NCBI GenBank assembly: GCA_000004985.1
Contig: GG738845.1
Strand: one strand, 5' to 3'
DNA from: Naegleria gruberi
Lineage: Eukaryota
Length of the DNA stretch: 64,000 nt
Positions 1-58,530 of the stretch are shown in pieces; positions within the stretch are counted from its first letter, which is position 1; each line of letters begins with the position of its first letter. The position numbers and the translations under genes were made by a program. The notes below the pieces were generated by a model. It was not told where the DNA came from, searched no databases, and was given only the letters and a program-made list of their open reading frames with translations.

Positions 1-274
1 CCAACCCAAACCCAAACCCAAACCCAAACCCAAACCCAAACCCAACCCAAACCCAAACCCAAACCCAAACCCAAAACCCAAACCCAAACCCAAACCCAAA
101 CCCAAACCCAAACCCAAACCCAAACCCAAACCCAAACCCAACCCAAACCCAAACCCAAACCCAAACCCAAACCCAAACCCAAACCCAAACCCAAACCCAA
201 ACCCAAACCCAAACCCAAACCCAAACCCAAACCCAAACCCAAACCCAAACCCAACCCAACCCAACCCAACCCGT
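1..274. repeat. Terminal telomeric array (CCCAAA)n with occasional CCCAA units; C-rich strand on + strand means left chromosome end (G-strand repeat TTTGGG)
   Basis: About 45 tandem hexamers starting at base 1 and ending abruptly at 274; the same unit recurs at 4096-4360. Confidence 0.9.
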
Positions 275-545
275 AACTTTACCATATACCTTTAATCACT
301 CTATTATACATCTGGTATCAATTTCATACAGTTAGAATTGAATTCAGTATGATAATAATAACAATCTTTCAAAATGACATATTTCAATAAAAAGATTACA
401 CTCCATCTCAGTCAGTTTACAAAATATCATACTAGTATCAAATATGAATAGACTCCTCTTGATGAGGAGTACAATCTGAGAAAGTTTCAAATTCATGGCT
501 CAGTATCTTCAAGTCAACTAAGTAACCTTAGAATAGACAAGTCAA
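275..545. repeat. Partial copy of subtelomeric module Y (5' 270 bp), directly abutting the telomere
   Basis: cgtaactttaccatatacc...ggctcagtatcttcaagtcaactaag aligns with the starts of the Y copies at 1538 and 7806 and with 9546-9790. Confidence 0.7.
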
Positions 546-936
546 TTAAGTACATCAATTCAACAATTGAAAATTGAAATATAGTATATTTATTACAAAT
601 TAATAGGACTCTTCTAAATAACTATATCGTTTAAATTAATATTTGTAAAGTTGTCAACACATCATGTCACAGATCATACTCTTTCTCAATGAATAGTTGA
701 CTAAATCAATTTAAAATGACATATAGTTGTTTATACATAGTATTGTATATGTGGTATCAATATCTTTTAAAATTGTCAAGTATTAAGGAAGATCTAAAAA
801 AATAAGGTGGTAAAATTGAATAAGTTAGTAAAATGACCTTGAATCGATCACTCGTCCCTTAATTGACATTCCAACATACAACCACTGAACCAACAGTGTT
901 ATAGCATTATTATCTAGAAATAATTCATACGAATAA

Positions 937-986
937 NNNNNNNNNNNNNNNNNNNNNNNNNNNNNNNNNNNNNNNNNNNNNNNNNN
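937..986. other. Assembly gap (N run, 50 nt)
   Basis: Run of n. Confidence 0.95.
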
Positions 987-1537
987 CTCTTCTTGACCTA
1001 ATTTGGTCAATTAAGACAATTAAGGATGACACTATAGGAAAAGTTACCAATCTCAAAATAAATGATAATATCGAGTTCCACATCTCAAATAAGGTGGACT
1101 TTCATCAAATTATATAATTTCATTTCAAGAAATACATCCGTTAGATAGTACATGGTGATATTTCAAGGGAATGGCTGGAAATCTGAAAGATATAGAAACA
1201 ACTCCATTTTCACTGAAATTGATACCATGATATGTAGACACTCTAATTAGCATATAATATCAATTTCATGAGTATTGGCTCAGTAGATATTGAGTTGTCA
1301 ACTCTATCATTTTACTATAGAACTTTGACATAAAATCAAAGATTATGCTCCAACTCACTTATTTTATATGCAATTAGTCTAGAACTGATAACACACATTC
1401 TGTACACCATGTATATACATCTATACAAGTTTAAAAACAATTCATGATACTTTAATTCAGTCAATCAGTAAATGTTCAATGTCAATAGTGATTATATCCA
1501 AGTGTACACTCTATCTCAGCGAAAGTACATTCAACCA
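987..1537. repeat. Subtelomeric module X (about 550 bp), copy 1
   Basis: Near-identical to 9020-9545; 5' part matches 5440-5610; 3' part matches 7425-7805 and 2400-2649. Confidence 0.8.
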
Positions 1538-2259
1538 TCATGTAACTTTACCAGATACATTTAGTCACACTATTATACAACTGGAATCAATTTTAATGTT
1601 TTAGAATTGAATTCAATATGATAATAATAACAATCTGTCAAATTGTCATATTTCAACATATAGAATATACTCCATCTCATTTATTTTTCAAAATATCATA
1701 CAAGTATCAAATATGAATACACTCTCCTAGATGAGGAGAACAATCTGAGAAAGTTTCACATTCATGGCTCAGTATCTTAAATTCCACTAACTTACCTTAG
1801 AAGAAGTTTACGTTCCATATCAGTCATTTCATAGAGTTATTGATCAATTCCAACACCAGTATGTTATTCATCCGTTCTAGTACAATTTATGTTTCAAGAG
1901 TGATTTCTGTGATAAAGTTGATGGAAGTGAGTGCCAAATGGCACTTTCACTTCCAATATAGTAGTAAGCTTTGTTAATCCTTTCGATTCTGAGCCATTTT
2001 CACATCAACTTGAATCTATTTTTAACTTTTCCGCGCGTTTGGCGGTTTGATCAAGCGGCAAAAATAATTTTGATCAAGTGATTTTATTACCACTAGCCAC
2101 CATCATAACTTGATATATATAAATATTTAACAATTTCACATCAGCCGAATATTGTGCCCCATTACAATCACCATCTTTTGACATCATTTGTGATATATAT
2201 TGTTAATGTATTTAAGGAGAAAAGCTTAATAAATAGGGGTTGACATGGGATCCAACCCC
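1538..2259. repeat. Subtelomeric module Y (about 722 bp), copy 1; contains a near-perfect palindrome (1920-1952) and a GC clamp with two TTGATCAAG repeats (2030-2085)
   Basis: About 95% identical to 7806-8526, from catgtaactttaccagatac to ggggttgacatgggatcc. Confidence 0.85.
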
Positions 2260-2399
2260 TTGAGTGAGGAATTGCTGATTATCTCAATAATTAGATAAGA
2301 AACTATACACAATCTATAGCCCACTGGATAGCTGAGATTGTAACCTATTTAATGATGTATATCATTGATTATGTATTTCAGTAATAATAAAGATCCAAT

Positions 2400-2649
2400 G
2401 AGTACGAAACCTAGATATTTGACATGATATCATAGATTATACTCCAACTCACTCATTTTACATATAATAAGTCTAGAATTGATACCACATAGTCTATATA
2501 TCAATTAAATACATCTACAATAGTTTAGAAACATTTCAAACTATTTTCATAAAATTAATCAGTAAATGTTCAATGTCAACACTTAATATATCTTAGTGAA
2601 CACTCCATCTCAATGAAAGTACATCCAATCATCCTATAACTTTACCAGA
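2400..2649. repeat. 3' half of module X, truncated by a gap
   Basis: Matches 9330-9545 and 1330-1537 (…gtcaatagtg/acacttaatat…catcctataactttaccaga). Confidence 0.7.
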
Positions 2650-2699
2650 NNNNNNNNNNNNNNNNNNNNNNNNNNNNNNNNNNNNNNNNNNNNNNNNNN
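2650..2699. other. Assembly gap
   Basis: N run. Confidence 0.95.
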
Positions 2700-4045
2700 T
2701 TCCTTATAATTGTGAAGTAAGAAAAGTTCAGTAAGAATGTAAAAATTTTAATTTGTTGTATAGTATAATACAGTCTTGTCAAAAGGTTGGATACGTCACT
2801 CTTTCGAAAAGAAGCAACGGGTTTGAGCCACTCCACGTTCATTTGAAACAGTTTCAAACAGTTTTTACATCGGGTTGGATAACAACCATTGTTTTAAAGA
2901 TTACAGTTGTGAAAAAATGGCAAATCTCAATCATTTTTGAGAATTTAAGTATACTGTAAAAGACTGTCACCATTTCCATCGAGTTTTGAACATTTTCCAA
3001 TCACTTGTAAAAAATTCTTAATAATTGTGAAATACTCAAAGTTCACTAAGATAGAAATATTTCATAAACTTATAGTTCCTTATTGTAAGGAATTGTCAAA
3101 AGGTCTGAAATCCACTTTCATGAATATAATCAACGGGTTTGAGCCAATCCACGTTCATTTGAAACAATTTCAAGTGGTTTTTACATCGGGTTGGATGACA
3201 ACCACTGTTTTAAAGATTACAGTTGTGAAAAAATGGAAAATCTCAATCATTTTTGAGATTTTGAGTACACTCCAATGGAATGTTACTATCTACATACAGT
3301 TTAGAACATTTTCCATCTACTTGAAAAAATTCCTTAATAATTTTGAAATATTCAAAGTTCAGTAAGATTGCAAACAATTTACTTTGTTGAATAGTATATT
3401 CCAGCCTCATCACATTGCTCGATCAGGAACTTTTTTGAAAAGAAGCAACGGGTTTGAGCCACTTCACGTTCATTTGAAACAATTTCAATTTGTTCCACAA
3501 GCGGGTTGGATGACAATCACTGTTTTAAAGATTACAGTTGTGAAAAATCGATCAATCTCAATCATTTCTTAGAATTTAAGTATACTCCAATGGAAAAATC
3601 GATCAATCTCAATCATTTCTTAGAATTTAAGTATACTCCAATGGAATGTTACCATATACATACAGTTTTGAACATTTTCCAACCACTTGTAAAACTTCCT
3701 TAATAATTGTGAAGTAAGAAAAGTTCAGTAAGAATATAAAAATTTTAATTTGTTGTATAGTATAATACAGTCTCATTCAAAAGGTTGGATAAGTCTCTTT
3801 TTTGAAAAGAAGCAACGGGTTTGAGCAACTCCAAGCTCATTTGAAACATTTAATAGTAGTTGGTACATCGGGTTGGATAACAACCACTGTTTTAAAGATT
3901 ACAGTTGTGAAAAATCGACCAATCTCAATCATTTTTGAGAATTTAAGTGTACTGTAAAGGACTGGTACCATTTCTATCGATTTTGGAACATTTTCCATCT
4001 ACTTGAAAAAATTCCTTACTATGTGAAATATTCAAAGTTCAGTAA
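2700..4045. repeat. Tandem satellite, about 330-bp unit x4, telomere-associated; conserved core aagaagcaacgggtttgagccactccacgttcatttgaaaca…catcgggttggat(a/g)acaacca(c/t)tgttttaaagattacagttgtgaaaaa
   Basis: Four head-to-tail units starting near 2700, 3020, 3350 and 3700; the ORF track shows the same peptide (RSNGFEPLHVHLKQFQ…VLKITVVKK) repeated in 4 ORFs, which is a repeat artefact. Confidence 0.85.
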
Positions 4046-4095
4046 NNNNNNNNNNNNNNNNNNNNNNNNNNNNNNNNNNNNNNNNNNNNNNNNNN
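4046..4095. other. Assembly gap
   Basis: N run. Confidence 0.95.
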
Positions 4096-4360
4096 CAAAC
4101 CCAAACCCAAACCCAAACCCAAACCCAAACCCAAACCCAAACCCAAACCCAAACCCAAACCCAAACCCAAACCCAAACCCAAACCCAAACCCAAACCCAA
4201 ACCCAAACCCAAACCCAAACCCAAACCCAAACCCAAACCCAAACCCAAACCCAAACCCAAACCCAAACCCAACCAAAACCCAAACCCAAACCCAAACCCA
4301 AACCCAAACCCAAACCCAAACCCAAACCCAAACCCAAACCCAAACCCAAACCCAAACCCA
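4096..4360. repeat. Interstitial (internal) telomeric tract (CCCAAA)n, same orientation as the terminal array; degenerate telomere-like remnants continue to about 4400
   Basis: About 44 hexamers with one cccaaccaaaaccc variant; followed by aaacccaacgtttaaaccctagcccaaaa. Confidence 0.9.
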
Positions 4361-4689
4361 ATTCTAAAAATAGAATTCTTCTAAACCCAACGTTTAAACC
4401 CTAGCCCAAAATTATAAACTTCTTCATATATCATTAAATTTTATATCATTCGATAGGAAATTATGAGTAGAACAACGTAGTATATTTAGTTTTACAATTT
4501 ATAAAATATTAACTTTGTAAATAATGTCAGATTAAAATTTGTAAAAAGAAACTATAGGAAGAATGTTAATTTCAAAATCCTTTAATGAGATTATATAGTA
4601 TATATCATCATTAACAACATTCATAATCACTTTGATATAAAATTTCAAAGGTTCAAGTCTGTAGGTATAAAAGTATCGAATGAAAAGGG

Positions 4690-5340
4690 AAGATGTAAGG
4701 TAAAAGAGGTCAACTATAACTTTTGAGTTTCTCATCAAAACATATTGAAACCTGACATGAAAATGTCCCATTTGATGATTAAACATCGAACATCAAATTT
4801 ATTTTAACTTTCATATTTAAAGATTTCTTCCCTCAACCATCACGGTCAACTATGATGAAAAGGATGAACTCTTGAAAAAGGACCACCTATTGAAACTTTA
4901 CCAAAATGATGTACATGATCTATAATGATGTAGAATTCAATTTCATATCATAAAAATCAGAAATGGTATCATGGGAAGGTAAATGTTGATATTTTATGGT
5001 TGACTTTAGAGAAAGACAAGTCAGATCAACTCTATCAAATACATCACTTCAATCAACAAAATATATATGAAAATGCTCCATTCGATGAGTAGAGATAGAA
5101 AATAAAGTTTATTTTCACTTTCATGTTCATGATTTCAACTCTAACATACCAACTTGTCAACTGTGAACATGGATGAAAATCTGGAAAATGACCACTCTAT
5201 GCAACTTCACCACCATGTTCAACATCTCAAATAATGTATATGATTCAGTTTTTAGACGTTTTAGTGAACATTCCATCATTCACTAAGGTAAAGGGTGAAA
5301 TATCAGGGTTGACTTGGTAAGTTAAGGAGGAACTCTTCAA
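4690..5340. repeat. Diverged tandem duplication (module W, two units of about 320 bp, about 75% identical); second copy of the 3' portion at 8527-9000
   Basis: ccacctattgaaactttaccaaaatgatgtacatgatctataatgat… at 4870 and 8527; unit 1 and unit 2 share …gaaaatg(t/c)(c/t)ccatt(t/c)gatga…. Confidence 0.7.
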
Positions 5341-5439
5341 ATAGAGAACTTCATCCTCAATCTACAAAATACATATCAATCGGTTGGAAATCAATAGTAC
5401 ATCTCGTAAATATCATTTATTTTATGTTTTGAAATCTCT

Positions 5440-5610
5440 CCATGACCTCTTTAGGTCAATTAAGACAATTAAGGATGATACAATAGGAAAAATTACTAAT
5501 CTCAAAATAAATGATAATATCGTGTTCTACATCTCAAATAAAGTGAACTTTCATCAAATTATATATTTTCATTTCAAGAAATGCATCCAGTGGATAGTAC
5601 ATGGTGATTG
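5440..5610. repeat. 5' part of module X, truncated by a gap
   Basis: Matches 987-1150 and 9020-9180. Confidence 0.75.
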
Positions 5611-5660
5611 NNNNNNNNNNNNNNNNNNNNNNNNNNNNNNNNNNNNNNNNNNNNNNNNNN
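5611..5660. other. Assembly gap
   Basis: N run. Confidence 0.95.
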
Positions 5661-6975
5661 ATATGAATACACTCCTCTTGATAAGGAGAACAATCTGATA
5701 AAGTTTCACATTGATGGCTCAGTATCTTCAAGTCAACTAAGGAACATATAAGGAAATTAATTAGGAAGAATCTTAATTTCAAAATTAAATTTTACCATCA
5801 TATCAAAATCATTGAATAATGAATTATTGATACAAGAATCATATGTTCAATTGTTATATTCATGTCAATAATCAGTGAAGGTACCATTTCATCAACCTTA
5901 GTGTTCACATCTCAATACAGTAAATGTGACTTAAACTTGAAATACAACCTATTTAGATGATATAATGATGATTCTACATAGTAACATGCATGTGAAATTG
6001 AATGTTGACACTTTTCATATTGTTATATTTATAGAGATGGTATCCAACAGTCAGTTCACAATATTAAATATTGAAACTCATTCTGTATGGTATATTTGGT
6101 GTATAGAGTGGTTTTTTATTGATTATAATCAGTTTGAAATAATTTGATGAAATTGACACTGTCTAGTCACCATTACATAACAAATAGACCATAGTTTACA
6201 TTCCCTCTAAGTCATTTCAACGATTTATTGATTAATTCCAACACCAGTATGTTTTTCATACATTGTAGTACAGTTTATATTTCAAGAGTGATTTCTGTGA
6301 AGATTATTATAATCGTAATAGCATGCAATACCAATAAAACTCAATAGAAGAGTTAATTCTTCTCATTTTCAAATAGATTATTCAATATAGAACACATCTA
6401 GATAGTTTCCAGATCATAAAAGTCAAGCTACTATATATGGTCTTTGATTAAATTTAAAAATAGACTGCCGTTAATTACTGGAATATTAATTCAAAGCTTG
6501 TTGATCAAGCTGTTGATTGAAATCAAACCGATTATTGAATATTGATCATTGAATTGGAGAATAATCACTCTTGATAATGTTAGTTATTCATATTGCATGC
6601 AAATCAACCTGATTCAATCTACAAAGGTTGGTAGTTGCACCACTTCGTGGCGAAACTACCCATCCACGATCAATCAACAGTTGATTCACTTTCATTCAAC
6701 TCAATTTGACCGTTATAATCAATAAATCAATGAAATGTTTCTTTATTAGCAATACCTGTTCAATCCAATGCGTGGCTTCACGTCCCAAACATTTGACTTC
6801 TCAAAGTCCATAATTCAAAAGTTAGTACTGACCTGACCTTTAAATATCTGTCAATACAAGAAATGAAAACATCAAAATTACATCATTAATAGATTATAAG
6901 AAATATAATCAATGATATAAATCTTCACTAAGTAATCTCTTAATTAACCCAAATAAATCAACTCTGAATCCCCTT
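5661..6975. repeat. Subtelomeric module Z (about 1.3 kb), copy 1; contains hairpin GGTAGTT-GCACCAC-TTC-GTGGCG-AAACTACC (6632-6662) and a T-element at its 3' end (6775-6975)
   Basis: Collinear, about 90% identical to 9700-11035. Confidence 0.85.
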
Positions 6976-7267
6976 ATTTCCTTATTCTCAAGTAGTTTCA
7001 TCTCTAGAAGAATCATGGCTCTCCACAGTGGTGGACTTTCCTCCGTAAACATCTCTTGTTCTCCTGATAACTTTTTTGATAACTATTACCAACACGTCTA
7101 TTTGCCAAATTTTCAGTTCATGACCAAACATTGATAGAAATGGAATACGAACAATTTGTAAAAAATAAATAAATCTAAATACTCACAGGTTGTAGACCTA
7201 GCCAATCGTCTCCAAAAATTATTTGATGAATTTGATGATGGTGATGGTGACAAAAGTTTACAAAAAA

Positions 7268-7374
7268 ATGACATCACAACCTATCACCGCACCTCTTGAT
7301 CAACTTCCCGATGAGTTGTTACTTTATATTGTTACCTTCTCCACCACAATCCTATTGACATCATTAAATTCTCC
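7268..7374 (+). pseudogene. N-terminal fragment of an F-box protein (MTSQPITAPLDQLPDELLLYIVTFSTTILL…), truncated by a scaffold gap; embedded in subtelomeric repeats
   Basis: aaaaaaATG context; LPDELLLYIV matches the F-box consensus LPxEIL..I; local GC higher than surrounding repeats. Confidence 0.4.
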
Positions 7375-7424
7375 NNNNNNNNNNNNNNNNNNNNNNNNNN
7401 NNNNNNNNNNNNNNNNNNNNNNNN
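7375..7424. other. Assembly gap
   Basis: N run. Confidence 0.95.
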
Positions 7425-7805
7425 ATTGTCAAGGAGAATGGATGGAAATCTGAAGGGACCAGAAACAACTCCATTTTCACTGAAATTAATACCATGATAT
7501 GTAGACACTCTAATTAGCATATGATATCAATTTCATTAATATTGGTTCAGTAGATATTGAGTTGTCAACTCTATCATTTTACTATAGACCTTTGACATAA
7601 AATCAAAGATTATGCTCCAACTCGCTCATTTTATATGAAGTTAGTCTAGAATTGATAACACATATTATATACATCATTTATATACATCTACATACGTTTT
7701 GAAACAATTCATGAAACTTACATTCAGTCAATCAGTAAATGTTCAATGTCAAGAGTGATTATATTCAAGTGTACGCTCTATCTCAGCGAAAGTACATCCA
7801 ACCAT
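7425..7805. repeat. Module X (3' 380 bp), copy
   Basis: Matches 1158-1537. Confidence 0.8.
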
Positions 7806-8526
7806 CATGTAACTTTACTAGATACATTTAATCACACTGATATACATCTGGAATCAATTTTAATGTTTTAGAATTGAATTCAGTATGATAATAATAACAA
7901 TCTGTCAAATTGTCACATTTCAACATATAGAATATACTCCATCTCATTCATTTTACAAAATATAATACAAGTATCAAATATGAATACACTCCTCTTGATA
8001 AGGAGAACAATCTGATAAAGTTTCACATTGATGGCTCAGTATCTTACAGTCAACCAATATACCTTAGAATATAGTTTACATTCCATCTCAGTCATTTCAA
8101 AGAGTTATTGATCAATTCCAACACCAATATGTTACTCACACATTATAGTACAATTCATGTTTCAAGAGTGATTTCTATGATAAAGTTGATGGAAGTGAGT
8201 GCCAAATGGCACTTTCACTTCCAATATAGTAGTAAGCTTTGTTAATCCTTTCGATTCTGAGCCATTTTCACATCAACTTGAATCTATTTTTAACTTTTCC
8301 GCGCGTTTTTCGGTTTGATCAACCGGCAAAAATAATTTTGATCAAGTGATTTTATTACCACTAGCCACCATCATAACTTGATATATATAAATATTTAACA
8401 ATTTCACATCAGCCGTATATTGTGCCCCATTACCATCACCATCTTTTGACATCATTTGTGATATATATTGTTAATGTATTTAAGGAGAAAAGCTTAATAA
8501 ATAGGGGTTGACATGGGATCCAAACC
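7806..8526. repeat. Module Y, copy 2 (palindrome at 8187-8219)
   Basis: About 95% identity to 1538-2259. Confidence 0.85.
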
Positions 8527-9000
8527 CACCTATTAAAACTTTACCAAAATGATGTACATGATCTATAATGATATAGAATTCAATTTCATGTCCTAAAAAT
8601 CAGAAATGGTATCATGAGAAGGTAAATGTTGATATTTTATGGTTGACTTAAAGGAAAGACAAGTCAGACCAACTCTATCAAATACATCACTTCAACCAAC
8701 AATATATACATGAAAATGCTTCACTCTACGAGTAGAGATAGAAAATCAAGTTTATTTTCACTTTCATGTTCATGATTTCAACTCTATCATACCAACTAGT
8801 CAACTGTGTACATGGATGAAAATCTGGAAAATGACCACTCTATGAAACATTACCATCATGTTCAACATCTCAAATACTGTATATGGTTCAAATTTCAGAC
8901 ATTTTGGTGAATATTCTATCTTTCAGTAAGGTAAAGGGTGAAATATCAAGGTTGACTTGGAAGCAGTAGGAAATCTTGAATATAGAGAACCAAATCCTCA
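8527..9000. repeat. Module W copy (matches 4870-5340)
   Basis: Alignment by eye, about 90% identity. Confidence 0.7.
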
Positions 9001-9019
9001 ATCAACAAAATACACAATT

Positions 9020-9545
9020 AAGATAATAAGGATGATACCATAGGAAAAATTACCAATCTCAAAATAAATGATAATATCGTGTTCCACATCTCAAATAAAG
9101 TGGACTTTCATCAAATTATATATTTTCATTTCAAGAAATGCATTCAGTAGATAGTACATGGGGATATTTCAAGAGAATGGATGAAATCTGAAAGGTACAG
9201 AAACAACTCCATTTTCACTGAAATTGATATCATGATATGTAGACACTTTAATTAGCATATGGTATCAATTTCATAAATATTGGTTCAGTAGATGTCGAGA
9301 TGTCAACTCTATCACTATACTATAGAACTTTGACATGATATCATAGATTATGCTCCAACTCGCTCATTATACGTACAATTAATCTAGAGTTGATACCAGA
9401 TAGAGTATACATCAATTAAGTACACTGTATACAGTTTGGAAACAATTCGTATTACTTTCAAAGAGTGAGTCAGTTAATGTTCAATGTCAATAGTGAATAT
9501 ATCCAAGTGTACACTCTATCTCAGTGAAAGTATATCCAACCATCA
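9020..9545. repeat. Module X, full copy 2
   Basis: Matches 987-1537. Confidence 0.8.
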
Positions 9546-11035
9546 TGTAACTTTACCAGATATGTTTAATCACACTATTGTATATATGGTATCAATTTTA
9601 GTCTGTTGGAATTGAATTCAGTATGATAATAATAACAATCTGTCAAATTGTCACATTTCAACATATAGAATATATACCATCTCAGTCAGTTTACAAAATA
9701 TAATACAAGTATCAAATATGAATACACTTCCCTTCATGAGGAGAACAATCTGAGAAAGTTTCATATTCATGGCTCAATACCTTCAAGTCAACTAAGGAAC
9801 ATCTAAGGTAATCAATGGGGAAGTATCTTAATTTCAAAATTAAATTTTACCATCATATCATAATCATTGAACAATGAATTATTTATGCAACAATAATATA
9901 TTCAATTGTCATATTCATGTCAGTAATCAGTGAAGGTGACACTTCTTCAACCTTAGTATACACATCTCAATATGTAGACTGTCAATTCCACTGAAACTTG
10001 AAATATTACCTATCTAGATGATATAATGATGACTCTCCATTGTAACATGCATGTGAAATTGAATGTTGACACTTTTCATCTTGTTATATTTATAGAGTTG
10101 GTATCCAACAGAGTCAGTTCACAATATTAAATATTGAAACTTATTCTATATGACATGTTTGATGTATGGAACGGGTTTTTATTGATTGTAATCAGTTTGA
10201 AATAATTTGATGAAATTGACACTGTCTAGTCACCATTACATGACAAATAGACCATAGTTTACATTCCATCTCAGTCATTTTAACGAGTTATTGATTAATT
10301 CCACCATTATGTTTCTCATACATTGTAGTACAGTTTATATTTCAAGAGTGATTTCTGTGTAGATTATTATAATCGTAATAGCATGCAATACCAATAAAAC
10401 TCAATAGAAGAGTTAATTCATCTCATTTTCAAATAGATTATTCAATATAGAACACATCTAGATAGTTTCCATATCATAAAAGTCAAGCTACTATATATGG
10501 TCTTTGATTAAATTTAAAAATAGACTGCCATTGATTACTGGAATATTCAAAGCTTGATGAGCAAGCTATTGATTGAAATCAAACCGATTATTGAATATTG
10601 ATCATTGAATTGGTGAATAATCACTCTTGATAATGCTATATTTCAGATTGCATGCAAATCAACCTGATTCAATCTACAAAGGATGGTAGTTGCACCACTT
10701 CGTGGCGAAACTACCTGAATCAACATCAGATTCACTTCCATTCAACTCAATTTGACCGTTATAATCAATAAATCAATGAAATGTTCCTTTATTAGCAATA
10801 CCTATTCAATCTTACGAGTAGATTCACGTCCCAAACATTTGACTTCTCAAAGTCCATATTTCAAAAGTTGATACTGACCTGACCTTTATATATCTATCAA
10901 TATAAGAAATGAAAACATCAAATTTACATCATTAATAGATCGTAAGAAATATAATCAATGATATGAATCTTCACTAAGTAATCTCTTAAATAACCCAAAT
11001 AAATCAACTCTGAATCCTAACCAAACCCAACCCTT
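9546..11035. repeat. Module Y 5' part (9546-9790) fused to module Z copy 2 (9790-11035), ending in a T-element
   Basis: Collinear with 275-545 plus 5661-6975; hairpin copy at 10683-10713. Confidence 0.8.
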
Positions 11036-11263
11036 CAATCTAATGAGTAGATTCACGTCCCAAACATTTGACTTCTTAAAGTCCATAATTCAAAAGTTGA
11101 TACTGACCTGACCTTTATATATCTATCAATACAAGAAATGAAAACATCAAATTTACATCATTGATAGATTATAAGAAATATAATCAATGATATAAATCTT
11201 CACTAAGTAATCTCTTAAATAACCCAAATAAATCAACTCTGAATCCTAACAAAACCTTAAATA
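10808..11263. repeat. Telomere-proximal T-element (about 230 bp) in tandem duplicate (10808-11033, 11034-11263); unit ends in degenerate telomeric …ctgaatcctaaccaaacccaaccc
   Basis: gattcacgtcccaaacatttgacttct…aaataaatcaactctgaatcc repeated twice; also at 6775-6975 and 17385-17495. Confidence 0.8.
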
Positions 11264-11331
11264 ACCAAAAAAAATCAACTCGGAGTCATAATCTTTGAAT
11301 TAAAATTTGAAGAGCAGTATAACAATTTTAT

Positions 11332-14300
11332 TTAAATACTCAACAATTCCTTCTCATTAAGCTTGTTGGAATTACCAGGAGTTTCTTTGCGTTTCTTAGT
11401 AAAGACGAAAACAGCACCAACAATGACAGCAATCACTGCCACCAAAGGAATAATCAAAAGTAATAAAGCAAGATAGTTCATGTTAGGTTTAGGAACAACA
11501 ATAGGTGGAGGAATAACAGTATCACCAGAAGTAGAAGTAGGTGGTTGAGGTTTTGTTGTTTCAGCTTCAGCAACAACATAGGAACCAGAGTCTCTGATTT
11601 GGATTGTTACAAATGTGGAATCATTACTAACAAGTGTACAAGTTGGTGTAATCACATAATCTTCATTTTTCAAGGTATAACATGCTATTTCATTAGTCAA
11701 AACAGATCTGGTTTGAGAAATCTTTTCAATCTTGATTGAAGCAATGGTTACATTTTCATTCAAGAAGGACATTATATTATTGTTTACAACAATACCAAAA
11801 TCAACAACCTTACTGATTGATTTGAGTGTTGAATTCTTCAATGTGTAAATCTTGTTGACTAATTTGACACTTTCTAAACTTTCCAAAATTTTCATTGAAC
11901 TGAATACATCCTTCATTTCAAAACGAGAGACACCATTTTGAGAGATATCTTCAGATAATGTACCAAGAGTCGAAATACTGACAAGTCTTGCATATGTAGT
12001 GGTACCAACTCCAGAGCTTCTAACAGCAGGCATGTCAGCCACTGCACTCTTGAGTTCAACACTTACAAGATTTGCTTTGATTTGGTCAATCTTGTTCAAA
12101 TCTTGAATAGTAAATGTTGAAATGGCTCTCTTGGATACGGAACTAGAAACATATTCTTCTAGCGATGATGCAGACTTCTTAGAGTTTTCAATATCATCAG
12201 GTTTCATGCTAATAGTTTCAGAGGAAGAAACACCCATAACCGTTGTAAAGAATTGATCAATAATCTTTGAAACAGTATCATCTGGGAAGTTTCGAACATT
12301 ATCACTCACTGATGAAATAATTGAAACCTTAGTTGATGCTGATTCTGATGATTCTGAAACAATTTGACTTTGTTGATCTTCTTGTTCAAAGAATTTATCA
12401 ATGAAAGCTTTACCAGCTTGTTGTAAAGCAAGTTTTTCTTCAGCACTAGCTGGAGTAACAGATGACACAACACTAAGAACGGCCGATAAAGAAGAAACAG
12501 AAATAGAACCTTTTTGTGCAGTTTCTAAAAGTCCAAGAGCTTGTCCAGATGATGGAAGTGATGTTGTCACTTCACTAATAGTTTCAGAAGCAGCACCCAA
12601 GGAATCATAAACCACAACCTTAATTTGCAAGTTACCAGCAGGCAAAGAAGTAGCAATAGATCTCTTTTCAGATCTTTCAGAAAGAACCTTCCAAATAGTT
12701 GCATCAGAAGTCTTGTACATGAATTTGTAAGAAAGTGGAAGTTGAGTATCGTACCAACCATTACCACACTTGATTTGGAATTCATCTTGTAAAGCAATGC
12801 CAGATTTTGGATAAACTTCTAAAATACCAATTGTTGGTGGTGAGTTTACAGTGAAAGTAAATGTTGCGTCACCAGATCTCAAACCATCAACAACCTTAAC
12901 ATTGATAGAATAAGTGGCTCCAGGAACAAGTAAACTCTTTGGTATGTTAATGTACTTGTTAGATGTTGAAATGGAGCTCAATTCTAAATCAGTTGATGAC
13001 CAAGTAAATACTCTAGATGTTGAAAGTGTATCAGCTGATGATGATTGTAAAATCAAGTCACTAGATGGATCCATAGATGTGGAATCAGAACCAACTGGTG
13101 CAATAATTGAAACTCTTATAACACTGCTCTTTGGTTGATCAAGAACAGTAACCTTAACAGTTGCTGAGCTTCTTCTGGATCCTTTGGTGAAAATAGTAGT
13201 GAACAAATAAACACCAGGAAGCATGGAGCTCTTAAATGACAAGAATGTTTGATCAATATTATTTTCATTGGATTTGAATCCTGAACAGTCAACTCCTGTA
13301 TCAATATTGGAACACAATAATTGGACATTACCTGAAGCATCTGACGGATTACTTGGATCATTCTTGTTGACAACGAATGAAACATCTGTTTCAAAGGACT
13401 GAGACATGTCACGTATATTAAATCCTACTACCAAAGGTAATGCTTTGGCAGATACTGTAAATGGAATTGAAACAGAGGCAGCTCCAGTTTGAGAAACAGT
13501 CAAAGTTAAATAATATTCACCAGGTTCTGTAATCTTGGTGTAAGTATCGCTGAAAACAAGCATTTCCTTCATTTGAAGGATAGGAACAGTTATGGTTGTT
13601 TTGGAATCCCAACTGTATACATAAGAAATTTCACCACTTCCGATATAACATGATGGGAATGTTACAAGAGGAGTTATTGTTGAAGTCTTACCAATAACTA
13701 GTGTACTTTGAAGACCTTCCTTAATGGTTACAGTTGGAGCTGTCAAGTCAGTGACTTCAAAAGAAGCAAAAGCAACAGTTGACCTTTGAGAGAAAGTACT
13801 TGAAACAGTAACTTTGACTGAATAAGAACCAACACTCAAATCTTTAGCACTAATCTTTACACCAGATATATCTTGTTGTTGATCAAGAATTTTTTGTAAG
13901 GTTGAAACGTCATCAGCTGAAGGAGATATTTCAACAGCCCAAATAAATTTCAATGCTCTACGGTCCTTGGAAATAGATCCAGATGCATCCAAATAAATTG
14001 AACCACAAGCTTTAGAAATAATAGACTTATCAGCAGTCAAAGTTGCTGTTGGTGGTATTGGCACAAAATCTTTTGTTTCTACGGTAACTGCTACAGTTTC
14101 TGGTGATGAGAAATACTTCTTGAATATTAATTTGTCATTGACCTTAATAGATGCAGATGGACCAATAGAGATTGTCATAGTCATGGTTTCACTATTAATT
14201 AAACAACCAGCACCTTCTCCAATTGAGCTCACATCAGTAATCAATTCTGAACAAGTAAACTTCTTTTTAAGTGATGAGTAAACGACACCAGAAATAGAAT

Positions 14301-16982
14301 CGCCATTTTGAGAGAAACCAAAAGAGTTTTGATCAATCTTAAAGTCACATTTTTCACCATACCAACCCTCAACACACTTTTCACAGTTTGCACCCATTGA
14401 GTTTCCAATACAAGTACAAGAACCATCAGAATTACATGTACCTCTACTGGAACAATTTTGAGCAGAAGTACATTGAACTTGACAATTGCTTCCAACAAAT
14501 CCTTCTTTACAATTTCTACAATATTCACCAACCCAATTACCAGTGCAAGAACACTTGAAATCTGATGTACAAACACCATGACCGTTACATGTTCCTTCAT
14601 CAGAACAAATTCTACCAGTACAATTGACTCCACTATAAGCAAGTGTACAAACTGAACAGAATTTGGATGGCTCATAATTTCCTTTACAAACACAAGTGTC
14701 AACTGAAACACAAGAACCAACTCCTGAGCAAACATCTCTATTACTTCTATCAATACCATTACATTTGAAGTTTTGACACAAGTCTCCATCATAACCTTCG
14801 GAACATTTACAAGTTGGAACACCTTCAATAGAAACACATGAGCCTCTACCTCCACAAACTCCCTTATCACTTGCCTTAATACCATTACAGATAGGAACGT
14901 CACATTTAGAACCTGTAAAACCTTCCTTACATGATGAACATGATGAACCAGCAAAATTATTCTTACAATAACATCCACTTGATGTACATGTTCCTTGGAA
15001 AGAACAACCTCCCTCGCTCTCTTGTTTACCATTACAAATTGGAATGTTACAACTGCTTCCAGTAAAACCAGTCTTACATTTACAATTATTGACTCCTACA
15101 CAATCACCATTTCCATTACAAACACTTGATGAATTTCCATCAATACCAAAACATAAATTGAATTGACAATTCAAGCCAGAAAATCCAGTCCGACAAGAAC
15201 ATGAATTTTCATCCATGCAAAGTCCTTTACCAGAACAAACAGCTGCATCAGTATAGAGTTTACCATAGCAACTAGTTGAAGGTGGTAAGTATTTACCATA
15301 GAAACATTCACTTTCAGGTTTTCCTTCACAATTACTTGTTGAGGTTGAGTTTACAATACCGTTAGTCCAAATGAAAGCACAAGTGTTCTTACAAAGTGAT
15401 TTTTCGTATGGAGTGGATTTATCGGAAAAGCAAGGTTTGATATCTTGATAACAAATATAGTTAGCAATAGCTTTACGACAAGTGTCATCACAAGTTTTTC
15501 CACCATTAATAATAGTGTCAATCATTGATTGAGCTTTCTTTTCTGCCTCACTATCAATACTCTTCAATAAGTTAGTAATTTCTGTTAAAGCAGATTGTGG
15601 ACTAGAATAATGTGCTGTTGGGGAAAAGGCGGTATTCAGTACCTTGTAGTAAACACTTGATTTACAATAAGTTAATGAACCACTTGGAACCTCAATACAT
15701 TGAGTTGGTGGAGTATAAACTGAACAGTCTTCTCCAGAATATCCACTTTCACACACACGTAAACAAATTCCATTGCTATTCTTTGAGTAACTTGATGCAC
15801 ATTCAGAGCATGGTGATTGAGCATTTGTTGTTACGTATTCAGTGAAACATTTACATTGTGTGGCATCAGATGTAGCAACATTAATAAATTCACAAACTCC
15901 CTTACCACAACCATTTACACATACAGGAACTTTAGCTACACATGTACCCTCGATATTCTCAAATCCAAGTTTACAGACACAGTTGCTTCCCTCTTTGATA
16001 AAACCTAAAGATTCACTGCAAGCGCAGGCACTACCAGTATTATTAAATCCACTCAAAGTATCACAAATACAATCAGAGCCACTTGAAATATAACCAGAAG
16101 CTACATCACAGACACATGTAGATCCTTTTAGAACAGATCCAATTGGACATGAAGAACATGGTAGTGATGCAACTTTAGTCTCAAAACCATTCTTACAAAC
16201 ACAATCTGAAGTTGTTGCAGTAATAAATTCACAAACACCATTGGAACCACAATCATATTGACATTTTGGAGCATTTGTTTGGACACAAGTTCCATTGGAT
16301 GAAGTAACTAATCCAGCTGATTCATCACAAACACATTTGCCATTTGATTCAACATATCCTAAAATATCATTACAAGAACTACATGGACCTGATTGAGATT
16401 TGTATCCTAAATCACAATCACAAAAAGTAACTGATGATTCATCATCACTATATTTACAAACGCCATTGCCACATCCATTATTACAAACAGGCTGACTACG
16501 AACACATTTGTTATTTTGGAATGCATAGTTGGCACTTTCATCACAAATACAAATGGCACTTCCTGTGGTATTAACACAAGCTCCACGAGGATTACAATCA
16601 AGAGTACATGGGTTTGAAGGGGTGTTGTTTTCATTATCACACAATTTTCCACTATATCCTAAATTACAAATACATTCAGCAATACCAGTTGCATTTTCAC
16701 ATTTACCATGAACACATGATAATGTACATGGATTAGTAAAGTTGGAATTACCATTATTGGAATCAAAATTTTGACATAATTCTCCACTATATCCAGGTTC
16801 ACATGTACATTTAGCAATACCATTTGTATTGTCGCATTTACCATGTACACATGATAATTTGCATGAATTGGTAACATTTACAATATTGCTACAGTTCCAT
16901 CCAATAGGATTGCAGAATTGACCTGCAGTACAATCAGAATCTGAGTAACATTCGTATCTACAAATAGAAACAGGGAGAACCA
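11332..16982 (-). CDS. Giant type-I membrane glycoprotein, 3'-terminal exon (stop at 11332): N-terminal array of EGF/laminin-EGF-like Cys repeats, central run of PKD/REJ-like Ig-fold repeats, Ser/Thr-rich stalk, single C-terminal TM (LALLLLIIPLVAVIAVIVGAVFVF) and short basic tail. 5' exon(s) with signal peptide lost in gap 17000-17049
   Basis: Open frame continues upstream of the ORF-track start (16644 is a TTG) to a pyrimidine-rich acceptor …ttctatttgtag at about 16960-16972; about 60 Cys repeats CxCxxG(F/Y)xGxxC. Confidence 0.8.
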
Positions 16983-16999: not shown

Positions 17000-17049
17000 N
17001 NNNNNNNNNNNNNNNNNNNNNNNNNNNNNNNNNNNNNNNNNNNNNNNNN
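17000..17049. other. Assembly gap
   Basis: N run. Confidence 0.95.
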
Positions 17050-17693: not shown

Positions 17694-18711
17694 TTAGAAA
17701 CACTTTCTGTGAACGATACCTGGACCGGCATCCTCATATTCTTCCTTTGTGATCCACATTTGTTGGAAAGTGGACAATGAAGCCAAGATGGAACCACCAA
17801 TCCAGACAGAGTACTTTCTTTCTGGTGGAGCAACAACCTTAATCTTCATTGAGGCAGGAGCCATAGCAGTCAATTCCTTGGTCATTCTTTCAGCAATACC
17901 TTCGAACATAGTAGTACCACCAGACAAGACAACGTTACCATACAAATCCTTTCTGATATCAATATCACATTTACCAATTGAATTGAAAGTAGTTTCATGA
18001 ACACCAGCAGCTTCCATACCAATGAAGTTTGGTTGGAACAAAACTTCTGGACATCTGAATCTTTCGTTACCAACAGTAATAACATTACCGTCTGGCAATT
18101 CGTATGACTTTTCAACAGATGATGATTCAGCAGCAACCTTCATTTCAGCTTCAAAGTCCAAAGCAATATAACAGAGCTTTTCCTTAATATCTCTGACAAT
18201 TTCTCTTTCAGCAGTAGTATTGAATGAGTAACCTCTTTCCATCAAAATCTTCATCAAATAATCAGTCAAGTCACGACCAGCCAAATCCAATCTCAAAATG
18301 GCGTGTGGCAAAGCATAACCTTCATAAATTGGAACAGTGTGAGAAACACCATCACCAGAGTCCAAAACAATACCAGTAGTTCTACCAGAAGCATACAAGG
18401 ACAAGACAGCTTGAATAGCAACATACATAGCTGGAACTGAGAAAGTTTCAAACATAATTTGGGTCATCTTTTCTCTATTGGCCTTTGGATTCAAAGGAGC
18501 TTCAGTCAACAAGACTGGGTGTTCTTCTGGAGCAACTCTCAATTCATTGTAGAAAGTGTGATGCCAGATCTTTTCCATATCATCCCAATTGGTAACAATA
18601 CCGTGTTCAATTGGATACTTCAAAGTTAAGATACCTCTCTTTGATTGAGCTTCATCACCAACATAGGCATCCTTGTTACCCATACCAACCATGATTGATT
18701 TTTGCTTTGGT
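17694..18711 (-). CDS. ACT: Actin, partial (residues about 38-375); N-terminus lost in gap 18712-18761
   Basis: [84 protein letters not shown]…IVHRKCF; over 85% identical to canonical actins. Confidence 0.95.
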
Positions 18712-18761
18712 NNNNNNNNNNNNNNNNNNNNNNNNNNNNNNNNNNNNNNNNNNNNNNNNNN
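18712..18761. other. Assembly gap
   Basis: N run. Confidence 0.95.
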
Positions 18762-19589
18762 AAACAAAGCTTTGAGTTTGAAATAATGTATAAAAGTATT
18801 TTCATTACGTTTTGTTATGTAATAAATATTTCAAAAATATTGGCAATAACCAGCCATAACGATTCTGTTGATTCACATATTAACTCCAAGAATTTCACCA
18901 CATCATCTCATCATTTAAATAGTATTGTATAGTAAGGGTGAATTTAATCCTTCAGCACGATTTGGAAATAATTTTATTATTTGGAAAAATTCAAGTTGGT
19001 ACATCATCATCGGAACAACTACCAACCATCATCATTGTTATTTATCATCATTAATAGTAATATATAAATCTGATAATAGTAATATTTTAGTGAAATTTAA
19101 TATTTTCACTAAAATCATCATTACTGCCAGATTCATATGGTAATTTGGAAAACTTTCAATCATAAGTATTGTAGTCTGTGGTCCATCAAGGTAAAATCAC
19201 TTCCGAACATTTTCCTATTGTTTCATGAACATTAATAAACTATTAGTATATCAATTATATCGTTATACTTGGTTGAAATCATTTGGGACTGTCCGTTAAT
19301 GTAGATCAAACATGATAAAACAATTGAAAATTGTTGTGTTGAGTTGTTGTGAATCAAGGTTGAAAATAAGCAAGATTTCCGACCTTGAAATTTACCATTA
19401 GTTACTTTTATTGGTGGTGTGATTCATTTACATCAATGATATGATGTTATTAATGATACTATGTTGTTGAAATTCACTCATCATGATGAAAATATAGGGT
19501 GAATGATGAATACTACACCAACAAGATGACTATTATTCGGAGTTGTTGTATACTGATAATATGCTATTAAAATTAAATTGTAATATTTA

Positions 19590-19970
19590 TTACCTCTTGT
19601 ATCGTAAAGACCTGAGAGACGAGGTCTACAACCAGAAAGTTTCGGTTCAGCGTTTAAGAGTTATGTGTTGACACTAAGTGGTTGGTTAGACTGAGCCTGC
19701 CTGTGGTAGGCAGAGAGGTATTTCCTGTTAATAGTGAAGCTCGCATTATGACGGTTGTACCACACTGAGTTCTTGTAGCAATTTTCCAAATAAATAGCTA
19801 GTGATTTGTAGATTTCTTGAGCCACATTCTTAGGTGTTCGTTTGCGCTTAGACCAGTTAAGCCAGTCATTATGGGAGCAACGACCATCAAACTCTATCCA
19901 AGTTGAGAGGATTCTGAGATATCAGTAGGAAAACGAATCTTGTTAAGGCTAAATTTCTAGTCCCAATCTT
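19590..19970. other. GC-elevated (about 45% GC) ORF-free island with several stem-loops (gacct-gagagacg-aggtc; ctgcct-gtggt-aggcag); candidate structured ncRNA or degenerate transposable-element relic
   Basis: Composition contrast with flanking DNA of about 25% GC; no ORF of 60 aa or more in any frame; hairpins visible by eye. Confidence 0.3.
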
Positions 19971-20019
19971 TCGTTTCATAGCATATTATTTAAACAAATA
20001 GATGAAAAATAACAGTAGT

Positions 20020-20736
20020 TTACTTATTGCATGTTAATTTATGCACCTTCCAATGCTTGCTTTGGCATTCTTTAGAGCAATAAACAACTGCTTGACATGC
20101 TCCACACTTCTTTTTAGAGTTAGGTTTGCCACAATTTACACAATCATAATTTTTCTTTTCCACAGAATTAGTAATGACGGTAGTATTTTCTGTATTTTCT
20201 TTTTCCTTTGGTTGAATTGTTTGTTGATTAATTTGTAGTTCTTGTTTAGTTTCAATATCTGGCTTTAGTGTTTTCAATAAATTAATGAAAAGTTCATTGT
20301 TTGGATCTTTAGCAAGTGCTACTTCACAAACTTGAATTGCTTCATTAACCCTTTCTAAACTCTGTAATGTTAATGCTTTTCTATAATAACCTTTAGAAAA
20401 ATTCTCATCTACCAAAATAGATTCATTTGCAGATATTAATGCTCTTTCATAATTTTTTAAATTAAAGAAGCAAGCTGACATATTGGAATATAAAATAGGT
20501 TTGATATTTTGAGTACAATCTGGATGTTTCAACGCTTTGTTATAAAAATCTAATGCCTTCATTGATGCACCTTTTTTAAATTCTTCATTTCCCTTATTTT
20601 TTAATTCTTCAGGTGTTTCTAGTGGAATATTTGATTTTTCATTTGAAAGTAAATCAATAATTTCTTTGTCAGTAATATTTAGTGATATTGGTAATATTGA
20701 AACAGAACCATCAATTCTTGATTCAATATATTGCAT
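20020..20736 (-). CDS. TPR-repeat protein with C-terminal MYND-type zinc finger
   Basis: ATG at 20736-20734; …CVNCGKPNSKKKCGACQAVVYCSKECQSKHWKVHKLTC matches the MYND consensus C-x2-C-x7-10-C-x2-C-x5-7-C-x3-C-x3-H-x3-C; three TPR-like helices (ALDFYNKALK…, YERALISANESI…, YYRKALTLQSL…). Confidence 0.8.
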   Translation of the reverse strand: MQYIESRIDGSVSILPISLNITDKEIIDLLSNEKSNIPLETPEELKNKGNEEFKKGASMKALDFYNKALKHPDCTQNIKPILYSNMSACFFNLKNYERALISANESILVDENFSKGYYRKALTLQSLERVNEAIQVCEVALAKDPNNELFINLLKTLKPDIETKQELQINQQTIQPKEKENTENTTVITNSVEKKNYDCVNCGKPNSKKKCGACQAVVYCSKECQSKHWKVHKLTCNK

Positions 20737-22636
20737 GAATGATTTTTTTAAATGTTGATCTGTTCATAACTATATAAAATTTGTTTAGTAATTTTAATCC
20801 AAATAAAATAATTGCATCAACACATTTTTCAAATGAAACATCATTAGAATGAGGTACATTAGTCATATAACATCTTTGACATTTTTCCAATCCTTTAACA
20901 CATTCATATACACTTGTATTAAAAAGTTCTTTTACACAAGTTTGTAAAATATCATTTGTAAGACTATTCTTTTTGAGTAGATATGATAAAATTTCAACTA
21001 GAGGTTTCCAATTACCTTGATTAATTGCCATTATTAAAGGACTTTGCTTAATTTTTACAGTTTTCAAAGGAGTACCTGTTTTTTCACAAAAATATTTTAC
21101 AATATCTGATCCATAATCATAATAACATGCGAAATGAAAAGGAGTAGGTTCACTTTTCGTATAAATTGTAGCTCCTTGATCAACTAATAATTTTACAGCA
21201 TCAAGATTTTTAGCACGAACAGCACAATGTAATAAATATAAATTTACATCAGCTCTAGAATCAGGAAAATATAATTTTGAATATAATTTAAAAAAATTAT
21301 CAAAAGGTTTCGAATTATCAAAATATTTTCTTCCAAGCTTTTTTTCTTCATTATTTAAAGTTAAATGAGAATTAATTATATTTGCATTCTTAATTGCCCA
21401 TTCTAAAGCTTCTGGATTTGATAACCATAAATCTAAATGATCTGAAATATATTGTGCTTGTGAACAAATAGATGATTCATCACTCGAAAATACTAATGAA
21501 TTTGGTATTCTTACATTTGCAAGTTTTCTAATACCTAATAAATATTCATATACTAATGGTGAATTAAGTGCTGCAACAGCAATTGATCCATAAAGTTCAG
21601 AATCTTTTTCTCTTCCACTTTCAATAAATTCTACATGTTCTTCAACTGAATTATCTTTTGATGATTTCTTTTTTATCATAAAATCACAAAGTGCAAAACT
21701 CCAAAGTAAAACCTTAGAAGATGCTAAACTTAATAAATCTTTGTTTTTTTTCATAAAATCATATGCTTCTTTCCATTTTCCTAATTTCATTAAACATTCA
21801 GGAATATTATATTGGAAATTACAATAACTAACCATAGATCCATGAATAATTGCATCAAGTTTTACAGCTCTATTATATGAATCTAAGGCTTCTTGATATT
21901 TACCCATTTTTCTTAAAATATTTGCTTCTCCAATAATTGATCTAAAATATTGTCTTAATTCATGTTTAGTCCAATTATCTTTTTCATTAAATTTTAAATT
22001 TGAAGAATAATATTCATCTTTTTTTTCTTGTCCTTCTCTAAAATATTTTAAAGCTTGTTCATAATTATTAGATTTATATAATCCTAATATATTAAAAGCT
22101 TCAATACAATTAGGTGATATTTTAAGTGATTCATCAGCAATTTTTAAAATATTATCTAATTCTTTAATATTAATAGAATTTAAATCATCATCAAAAAATA
22201 ATTTAGTTTTAGAATAAGCTTCAAGAGATTTCTTTGATGCTTGAAAATTTTCCTTTGTTTTAAACATATTTTGTCTTTGTTCGGAATCATGAATAGGTGA
22301 TCCAGCCATTTCATTATTCTTTTTAAAATCATTAATAAGAAATTCTACATCTCTACTATCAGGATTTTTATAATATTGTTCAATTAAATAAATTTTCTTT
22401 TTCTTTTCTGTTTCAAATTTTAAACCTGATGTATTTTCGTGTTTTTCATAAATATTACATAAATCTAATATTTTAAGTATTTTATCAAGTTGAATTTCAT
22501 CTAAACTATGTAATTTACTTGATGCTCCGAATATTTTAGAAAATGTATCCGTATATTTTTCAAATAAACAAGATAATGATGGATTATTGCAACTATTTTT
22601 TAAACCTAGCATTGAAGCTAGATTGAATGAAGACAT
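20723..22636 (-). CDS. Hypothetical 637-aa protein with TPR-like and ankyrin-like repeats; its stop codon overlaps the start of the MYND gene by 14 nt in a different frame
   Basis: Long uninterrupted ORF; ankyrin-like LLHCAVRAKNLDAVKLLVDQGATIY; divergent promoter shared with the cyclase gene. Confidence 0.6.
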   Translation of the reverse strand: MSSFNLASMLGLKNSCNNPSLSCLFEKYTDTFSKIFGASSKLHSLDEIQLDKILKILDLCNIYEKHENTSGLKFETEKKKKIYLIEQYYKNPDSRDVEFLINDFKKNNEMAGSPIHDSEQRQNMFKTKENFQASKKSLEAYSKTKLFFDDDLNSINIKELDNILKIADESLKISPNCIEAFNILGLYKSNNYEQALKYFREGQEKKDEYYSSNLKFNEKDNWTKHELRQYFRSIIGEANILRKMGKYQEALDSYNRAVKLDAIIHGSMVSYCNFQYNIPECLMKLGKWKEAYDFMKKNKDLLSLASSKVLLWSFALCDFMIKKKSSKDNSVEEHVEFIESGREKDSELYGSIAVAALNSPLVYEYLLGIRKLANVRIPNSLVFSSDESSICSQAQYISDHLDLWLSNPEALEWAIKNANIINSHLTLNNEEKKLGRKYFDNSKPFDNFFKLYSKLYFPDSRADVNLYLLHCAVRAKNLDAVKLLVDQGATIYTKSEPTPFHFACYYDYGSDIVKYFCEKTGTPLKTVKIKQSPLIMAINQGNWKPLVEILSYLLKKNSLTNDILQTCVKELFNTSVYECVKGLEKCQRCYMTNVPHSNDVSFEKCVDAIILFGLKLLNKFYIVMNRSTFKKIIHAIY

Positions 22637-58348: not shown

Positions 58349-58530
58349 TCGCTTAGCAAGGATGTGGATAATTGGTTGATTTTAAAGGAAAGGATTTCAT
58401 GAAGAACGATTTGGGAGATAAAATGTTCTTCTCACCCAAACAAGTACAAAAAACAAGCAAAAAAAAACAAACGTTATCACTTTTGTTTATCAATAAAAAC
58501 CGACTACAATAATTGTTACAGGGTTTCAAA
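58349..58530. promoter_or_regulatory. 182-bp bidirectional promoter region (GluRS divergent from coiled-coil gene)
   Basis: Divergent ATGs at 58348 and 58531. Confidence 0.5.

Follow-up and report, generated by a model that had tools for sequence, protein, structure and literature searches.

The GC-rich island between the actin and TPR/MYND genes of the Naegleria gruberi DNA analyzed here (64,000 nt, hereafter the window) is, with a probability of about 0.95, the remnant of an N. gruberi non-LTR (LINE-type) retrotransposon: a dead insertion, truncated at the 5' end, on the minus strand at ~19980..19574. What is left of the element is the C-terminal ~105 codons of ORF2, followed by the stop codon of the family and the 3'UTR. 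The original prediction had named three candidates for the island: (i) a structured ncRNA gene, which was the lead candidate, (ii) a degenerate transposon or retroelement remnant, and (iii) a decayed horizontally acquired fragment. It is the second that holds, as the minus strand carries a decayed LINE ORF2 C-terminus plus 3'UTR and the family is dispersed in the genome. The Rfam and copy-number outcomes that had been tied to a TE relic, i.e., no Rfam match and multiple dispersed copies with TE hallmarks, are likewise those found. Four window ORFs match the N. gruberi NEG-M proteins EFC50606.1, EFC50609.1, EFC50610.1 and EFC50612.1 exactly, while a fifth is identical to an ENA protein from the cluster of EFC50264.1; the five share one scaffold of 1,555,553 bp. 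The features of the relic and its surroundings are given below, where P0003 is an N. gruberi protein and L001 (ENA ERZ4903137), L002 (Logan run SRR26902778) and L004 (ENA ERZ12289966) are environmental contigs that carry relatives of the element.

17694-18767, minus strand: actin ORF, interrupted by a 50-N assembly gap (ORF list)
19556..19571, no strand: inverted-repeat arm ATAATATGCTATTAAA, in the flank (repeat search)
19574..19980, minus strand: whole relic of ~407 bp, ORF2 C-terminal tail plus 3'UTR (tblastn, DNA alignments)
19574..19660, minus strand: element 3'UTR, ~87 nt (alignments with L002, L004 and L001)
19581..19574, minus strand: terminus ACAATTTA, common to L002 and L004 as ACAMTTTA
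19591..19586, minus strand: AATAAA, common to L002 and L004
19594..19620, minus strand: conserved 3'UTR core GTCTCTCAGGTCTTTACGATACAAGAG (alignment with L004 and L002)
19661..19663, minus strand: ORF2 stop codon TAA, at the position where the intact N. gruberi copies end (SVNP, then stop)
19664..19897, minus strand: second piece of the ORF2 tail, IEFDGRCSHNDWLNWSKRKRTPKNVAQEIYKSLAIYLENCYKNSVWYNRHNASFTINRKYLSAYHRQAQSNQPLSVNT (phmmer, tblastn, alignment)
19898..19899, minus strand: frameshift, the R189 codon of P0003 being 2 nt (gg) after a 1-nt deletion (tblastn, sequence reading)
19900..19980, minus strand: first piece of the ORF2 tail, YETKDWD, a stop and then KFSLNKIRFPTDISESSQL (tblastn, alignments)
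19974..19989, no strand: inverted-repeat arm TTTCATAGCATATTAT, in the flank and overlapping the 5' junction of the relic (repeat search)
20020-20736, minus strand: TPR/MYND ORF, 238 aa (ORF list)

The position of the island between the actin and TPR/MYND genes agrees with the ORF list. The block at 19590-19970 is richer in GC than its surroundings, as the original prediction stated, but at 41.2% overall rather than the ~45% it gave; GC peaks inside the block at 42.5% (200-nt windows), compared to 20-29.5% in the spacer to the left (18700-19500) and 31% across the whole window. The rise is due to the coding-type composition of ORF2 within an AT-rich spacer. Other local GC maxima of 41-43% are at 27420-27780 and 58460-58640, both in or beside long ORFs, and the first includes short tandem repeats (27531-27782). 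The claim that no ORF of at least 60 aa is present is correct for conventional ORFs, the longest of which to overlap the island is 54 aa; to call the island ORF-free is, however, misleading, as six-frame translation reveals a minus-strand stop-free stretch of 85/86 codons (19918..19664) that begins without an ATG and is of a length reached in only 6% of shuffles. The coding-like peptide FLGVRLRLDQLSQSLWEQRPSN noted earlier is present in plus frame 0 and is the antisense of ORF2. The two hairpins singled out earlier are also real: AGACCT/AGGTCT (19608-19627, loop of 8 nt) is in the LINE 3'UTR, and CTGCCT/AGGCAG (19697-19713, loop of 5 nt) is in the ORF2 coding sequence, where it arises as a side effect of the SAYHRQA codons.

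The identity of the island is established by protein homology. When searched by phmmer against 1.84 billion representative proteins, the minus-strand peptide of 19918..19664 matches residues 190-266 of the 267-aa P0003 with 92% identity (E=2.5e-41), followed by P0004 (E=4e-21) and P0005 (E=6e-19). P0003 clusters with P0008, P0009 and P0010, and all four are N. gruberi "predicted proteins". With these four proteins as tblastn queries against the window, P0003 residues 170-188 align to 19956..19900 (95% identity) and residues 190-266 to 19897..19667 (91-92% identity across queries). The two segments are collinear, in different frames, abut at 19900/19897 and reach the C-terminus of the protein. 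Alignment of the DNA with L002 and L001 runs from TATG (19980) to ACAATTTA (19574). Homology thus extends from residue ~160 of P0003 to the family stop codon and then through the 3'UTR to the terminus common to L002 and L004, such that the relic has an intact 3' end and a truncated 5' end. The ORF2 tail is outside every Pfam family, and a Pfam search of six-frame island peptides returns nothing. The RT, EN and ORF1 parts of the element are not detected elsewhere in the 64-kb window by tblastn, nor is a second copy of the island found there by repeat search or tblastn.

The relic is decayed. In addition to the frameshift, an in-frame TAG is present at 19959..19957, and the region near the 5' end differs from the intact copies by a 6-nt insertion and a 9-nt deletion (family copies read LYATWDAISQKFSLNKIRFPPDISESSQL over the region of the first piece). 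Amino-acid changes amount to ~9%, some of which fall on residues conserved in the family (e.g., NRP to NRH and VAL to VAQ). The relic is therefore not a working gene. Its identity to the N. gruberi copies is 89-92% (89% over the reconstructed 106 aa), which makes it the most diverged copy. It is an old, dead insertion, whereas other members of the family are young.

The family is assigned to the LINEs through the proteins in which the tail follows a reverse transcriptase. The tail is located after RVT_1 in P0012 (E=6.5e-28), P0020 (E about 1e-33) and P0005; the island peptide is, in this way, homologous to the ORF2 of RT-containing LINE proteins. P0021, encoded by environmental contig L003, has an RVT_1 domain (E about 1e-33) and the start of the tail, within which the contig copy breaks off. 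Both P0021 and P0023 have N-terminal matches to Exo_endo_phos and Exo_endo_phos_2; with E=1e-3 to 1e-4, these do not reach the curated cut-offs of Pfam. P0021 residues 13-845 align with human LINE-1 ORF2p, for which a structure is solved (phmmer, E=4.5e-17), and this alignment begins at residue 13 versus 23 and spans the EN domain. A CX2CX7HX4C knuckle precedes the tail in the family. Upstream of ORF2, the ORF1 of contig L003 has a coiled coil, and P0010 has a weak RRM in the position that matches ORF1. Judged from these sequences, the family has the architecture of an ORF2 from an AP-endonuclease-type non-LTR retrotransposon (AP-endonuclease-like domain, RVT_1 and CCHC knuckle). While this architecture is L1-like, the RT of P0021 aligns with R2 proteins (E=1e-30), which likewise include a solved structure, and obtains 110 bits against R2 as opposed to 65 bits against L1 ORF2p, a comparison of clades by score.

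Human LINE-1, an AP-endonuclease-type element, is the closest model for the anatomy of the family, which has a putative AP-endonuclease-like N-terminus, a central RVT_1 and a C-terminal Cys-His knuckle, preceded by an ORF1 in which a coiled coil and a weak RRM are seen. The relic itself is like the 5'-truncated copies of LINE-1 in that the 3' end is kept without the upstream part, in a dead-on-arrival form. An AATAAA near the 3' terminus and dispersed copies are further points of likeness. By contrast with LINE-1, the relic has no poly(A) tail or recognizable target-site duplication, the RT of the family scores better against R2 proteins, and the 3'UTR core exceeds the coding region in conservation, which suggests a mode of recognition unlike the poly(A) dependence of L1.

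Multiple dispersed copies of the family are found at the protein level. Copy number is taken here from annotated proteins, and the ends of the element consensus are deduced from three related environmental contigs. Seven N. gruberi proteins carry the tail (P0003, P0008, P0009, P0010, P0023, P0022 and P0059), on scaffolds of 196593, 712659, 3081, 351708, 461873, 613270 and 418085 bp, all of which are distinct from that of the window. The tails of P0003, P0008, P0009, P0010 and P0023, on five scaffolds, are 96-100% identical to each other, which suggests that the family may have been active recently; P0022 and P0059 form a second subfamily at about 61-63% identity. Relatives on four environmental contigs have unrelated flanks. 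Scans of JGI metagenomes with the tail alignment and with a pattern of the 3'UTR core give no matches.

The 3' end of the element is marked by a short sequence that is conserved beyond the coding region. L001 is cut off at the contig end, and L003 ends before the full tail and is thus uninformative on the 3' end. Downstream of the stop codon, the window, L001, L002 and L004 share GTCTCT[C/A]A..TC[G/T]TTA[C/T]. The full core, GTCTCTMAGGTCKTTAYGATAYAAGAG (19620..19594 in the window), is common to the window, L002 and L004, in which it is followed by AATAAA (19591..19586) and then ACAMTTTA (19581..19574). Similarity to L002 and L004 ends after ACAMTTTA, and the three flanks diverge beyond this point. 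Core identity to the window is 26/27 for L004 and 23/27 for L002, compared to only ~57-66% protein identity for the ORF2 tails of L002 and L004 and 69% DNA identity for L002. The conservation of the core beyond the coding region suggests 3'-end-specific ("stringent") recognition rather than an L1-like dependence on poly(A). In stringent-type LINEs such as eel UnaL2 and R2, the RT recognizes a stem-loop of the 3'UTR. The family resembles these elements in the retention of a short 3'-terminal sequence (23-26/27 nt) with a possible 6-bp stem across diverged subfamilies. The RNAalifold consensus of the core, from three sequences, is a 6-bp stem GUCUCU/AGAGRY with an inner 3 bp; the candidate stem of the window (GUCUCU/AGAGGU) reaches 19592. 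Unlike the stringent LINEs, the core has no compensatory change among the three sequences (two changes are one-sided). The GACCT/AGGTC hairpin of the window, immediately 5' of the core and overlapping it, is also found in L004 and is shorter in L002. The 3'UTR core (GUCUCU...AGAGRY) is probably the cis signal that is recognized by the RT of the element. R2 differs from the family in having a C-terminal, restriction-like endonuclease and site-specific insertion, whereas the domain of the family is N-terminal and putatively AP-type, and its sites are dispersed.

LINE ORF2 proteins nick target DNA, and the RT copies the element RNA from its 3' end, primed on the nick. By analogy to this established biology, the AP-type endonuclease of the ORF2 protein would have nicked the target DNA, the RT would have primed on the nick and copied the element RNA from the 3' end, and an early abort of copying would have left only the last ~105 ORF2 codons and the ~87-nt 3'UTR to be integrated. 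Integration would have occurred about 40 bp downstream of the TPR/MYND stop codon and in the same orientation as this gene. Such abortive target-primed reverse transcription would account for the exact 3' end and the missing upstream part of the relic. A clear target-site duplication is not visible at the flanks of the relic, where only a degenerate, AT-rich direct similarity is found (TTTAAATAATAT versus TTTTAATAGCAT). Similarly, no poly(A) or simple-repeat tail is seen: in the window, L002 and L004 alike, the common terminus is not succeeded by a run of A. Such tails are missing from many LINE clades, and their absence here does not exclude membership in the LINEs. Bracketing the relic are the arms of a 16-nt inverted repeat (19556-19571 and 19974-19989), of which 12 nt are perfect and 15/16 match overall; inverted repeats as good are found at 0.1-0.4% of comparable, equally spaced position pairs in the window. 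With the relic removed, the arms would form an AT-rich palindrome of ~32 bp that lies ~30 nt past the stop codon of the MYND gene. A bracketing inverted repeat is not predicted by the standard mechanism of LINE insertion and could reflect insertion into a palindrome or chance.

The lead candidate of the original prediction, a structured ncRNA gene (snRNA, snoRNA, RNase P/MRP, SRP or novel RNA) transcribed from the island, has in its favor the local rise of GC in an AT-rich spacer, the lack of an ATG-initiated ORF of at least 60 aa and the two perfect 6-bp hairpins. The first two traits are shared with the ncRNA genes that form GC islands in AT-rich protist genomes (e.g., snRNA, SRP and RNase P/MRP), but the island differs from these genes in that it has neither a covariance-model match nor an excess of folding energy and includes a recognizable protein-coding remnant. 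A scan of the whole 64-kb window with Rfam 15 at gathering thresholds gives 0 matches, and a permissive scan (E<=10) of 19300-20100 gives six at chance level (E=0.6-10), of which only one, sR60 at 12 bits, is inside the island. No tRNA is found in the 64-kb window. The MFE z-scores of the 381-nt block relative to dinucleotide shuffles are -0.31 (plus strand) and -0.62 (minus strand), and the five perfect hairpins with stems of at least 5 bp compare to 3.3 +/- 2.2 in 500 shuffles, of which 49% attain a 6-bp stem; the description of the island as structured is thus not upheld. Motif resemblances fare no better. The plus-strand GUAAAGACCUGAGA is loosely similar to RNase P CR-I, and the string TCCCATAA is found on the minus strand; neither resemblance has support from a tool, and the RNase P/MRP CR-I, SRP and U-snRNA motifs have no Rfam support. 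CCCAYAA (the DUSE promoter motif), a dictyostelid motif irrelevant to Naegleria, is rarer than chance, with seven occurrences in the window, one of them inside the island, compared to 14.4 expected. As the island is in addition accounted for end to end by homology to the LINE ORF2 tail (92% over 77 aa, E=2.5e-41), the ncRNA reading is effectively refuted and its residual probability is minimal. Outside the island, C/D-box-like motifs (AUGAUGA ... CUGA, e.g., 19500-19558) cluster at 19430-19560 on the plus strand, with a match to Dictyostelium snoRNA DdR11 that is not significant (13.8 bits, E=8.6) and no convincing terminal stem.

Equally improbable is the view that the island is the decayed remainder of a host gene, or of DNA gained horizontally, rather than of a mobile element. 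The N. gruberi homologs bear no annotation other than "predicted protein", and P0010 joins the tail to EGF repeats, both of which might point to a host gene. The tail is, however, always found after a reverse transcriptase where the sequence suffices (P0012 and P0020, with P0021 cut off inside the tail), is near-identical (96-100%) on five scaffolds and has relatives on four environmental contigs with unrelated flanks. Horizontal acquisition, the third of the original candidates, has no support, the closest relatives being other copies inside N. gruberi. P0010 (EFC41040.1; 1920 aa, on another N. gruberi scaffold) includes teneurin-like EGF repeats, ORF1 (RRM and coiled coil), endonuclease and ORF2 tail without an RT, and is evidently a chimeric gene model in which an EGF gene is joined to the ORF1 RRM, endonuclease and tail. 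The window has a 1770-aa EGF-rich ORF (11332-16644) to which the EGF part of P0010 is similar. A separate proposal, which is compatible with a LINE relic, is that the insertion is dead as a transposon and now forms most of the 3'UTR of the TPR/MYND gene together with its polyadenylation signal. The relic is co-oriented with the MYND ORF and begins 40 nt after its TAA (20022..20020), no canonical AATAAA is present between this stop codon and the relic, and the relic ends with the AATAAA conserved in the family (19591..19586). This exaptation is, on the other hand, putative: AATAAA is a presumed poly(A) signal in Naegleria, the AT-rich spacer holds many near-cognate signals, and the MYND ORF has neither an exact match nor a close relative in the protein collection, such that its gene model is undocumented. 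We regard exaptation as unlikely, at about one chance in five. Slightly less likely still is the joint scenario in which the core (GUCUCU-N17-AGAGRY, possibly pseudoknotted with GACCU/AGGUC) would be the RT signal, the copy would have entered the palindrome by capture at a break in place of canonical nicking, and the relic would now supply the MYND 3'UTR and poly(A) signal.

The neighborhood of the relic has further traits of note for annotation. The MYND ORF may be unannotated or modeled differently in N. gruberi NEG-M. Exact look-ups of this ORF, a 637-aa ORF and a 1026-aa ORF in the contig index return nothing, and a homolog search of the protein collection with the MYND ORF gives only two weak TPR matches; its neighbor at 20726-22636 is EFC50606.1 and does have a match in this collection. 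The 50-N gaps at 17000-17049 and 18712-18761 flank or interrupt the actin gene, and the latter removes codons near the 5' end; thus, the actin ORF as read is incomplete. Positions 1-11300 of the window form a large block of tandem and segmental repeats interspersed with five 50-N assembly gaps, with repeat pairs that include 5661-6971 versus 9716-11017 (90.5%) and 1163-2259 versus 7429-8527 (93%), among others. Two stretches of this block, 5169-5231 and 8812-8874, correspond to the N-terminal 21 aa of P0009, which is itself a chimeric gene model of N. gruberi.

Repeats make up 5.1% of N. gruberi, and 190 LINE fragments are noted in N. lovaniensis (PMC6125883). A description of the LINE family reported here was not found in the searchable literature, where only general statements on Naegleria repeats are made; thus, the family appears undescribed, while the kind of element is thoroughly known. 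The island is an ordinary 5'-truncated LINE relic, and a dead LINE tail of this type, which a protein-level search identifies at once, has little import beyond annotation. For annotators, EFC36925.1, EFC49433.1, EFC35442.1, EFC41040.1, P0022, P0023 and P0059 are LINE ORF2 fragments or chimeric models to be masked. More generally, the absence of an ORF from a GC island of an AT-rich protist genome does not by itself imply an RNA gene. The conserved 3'UTR core, in turn, is a candidate cis element for studies of retrotransposition in Heterolobosea.
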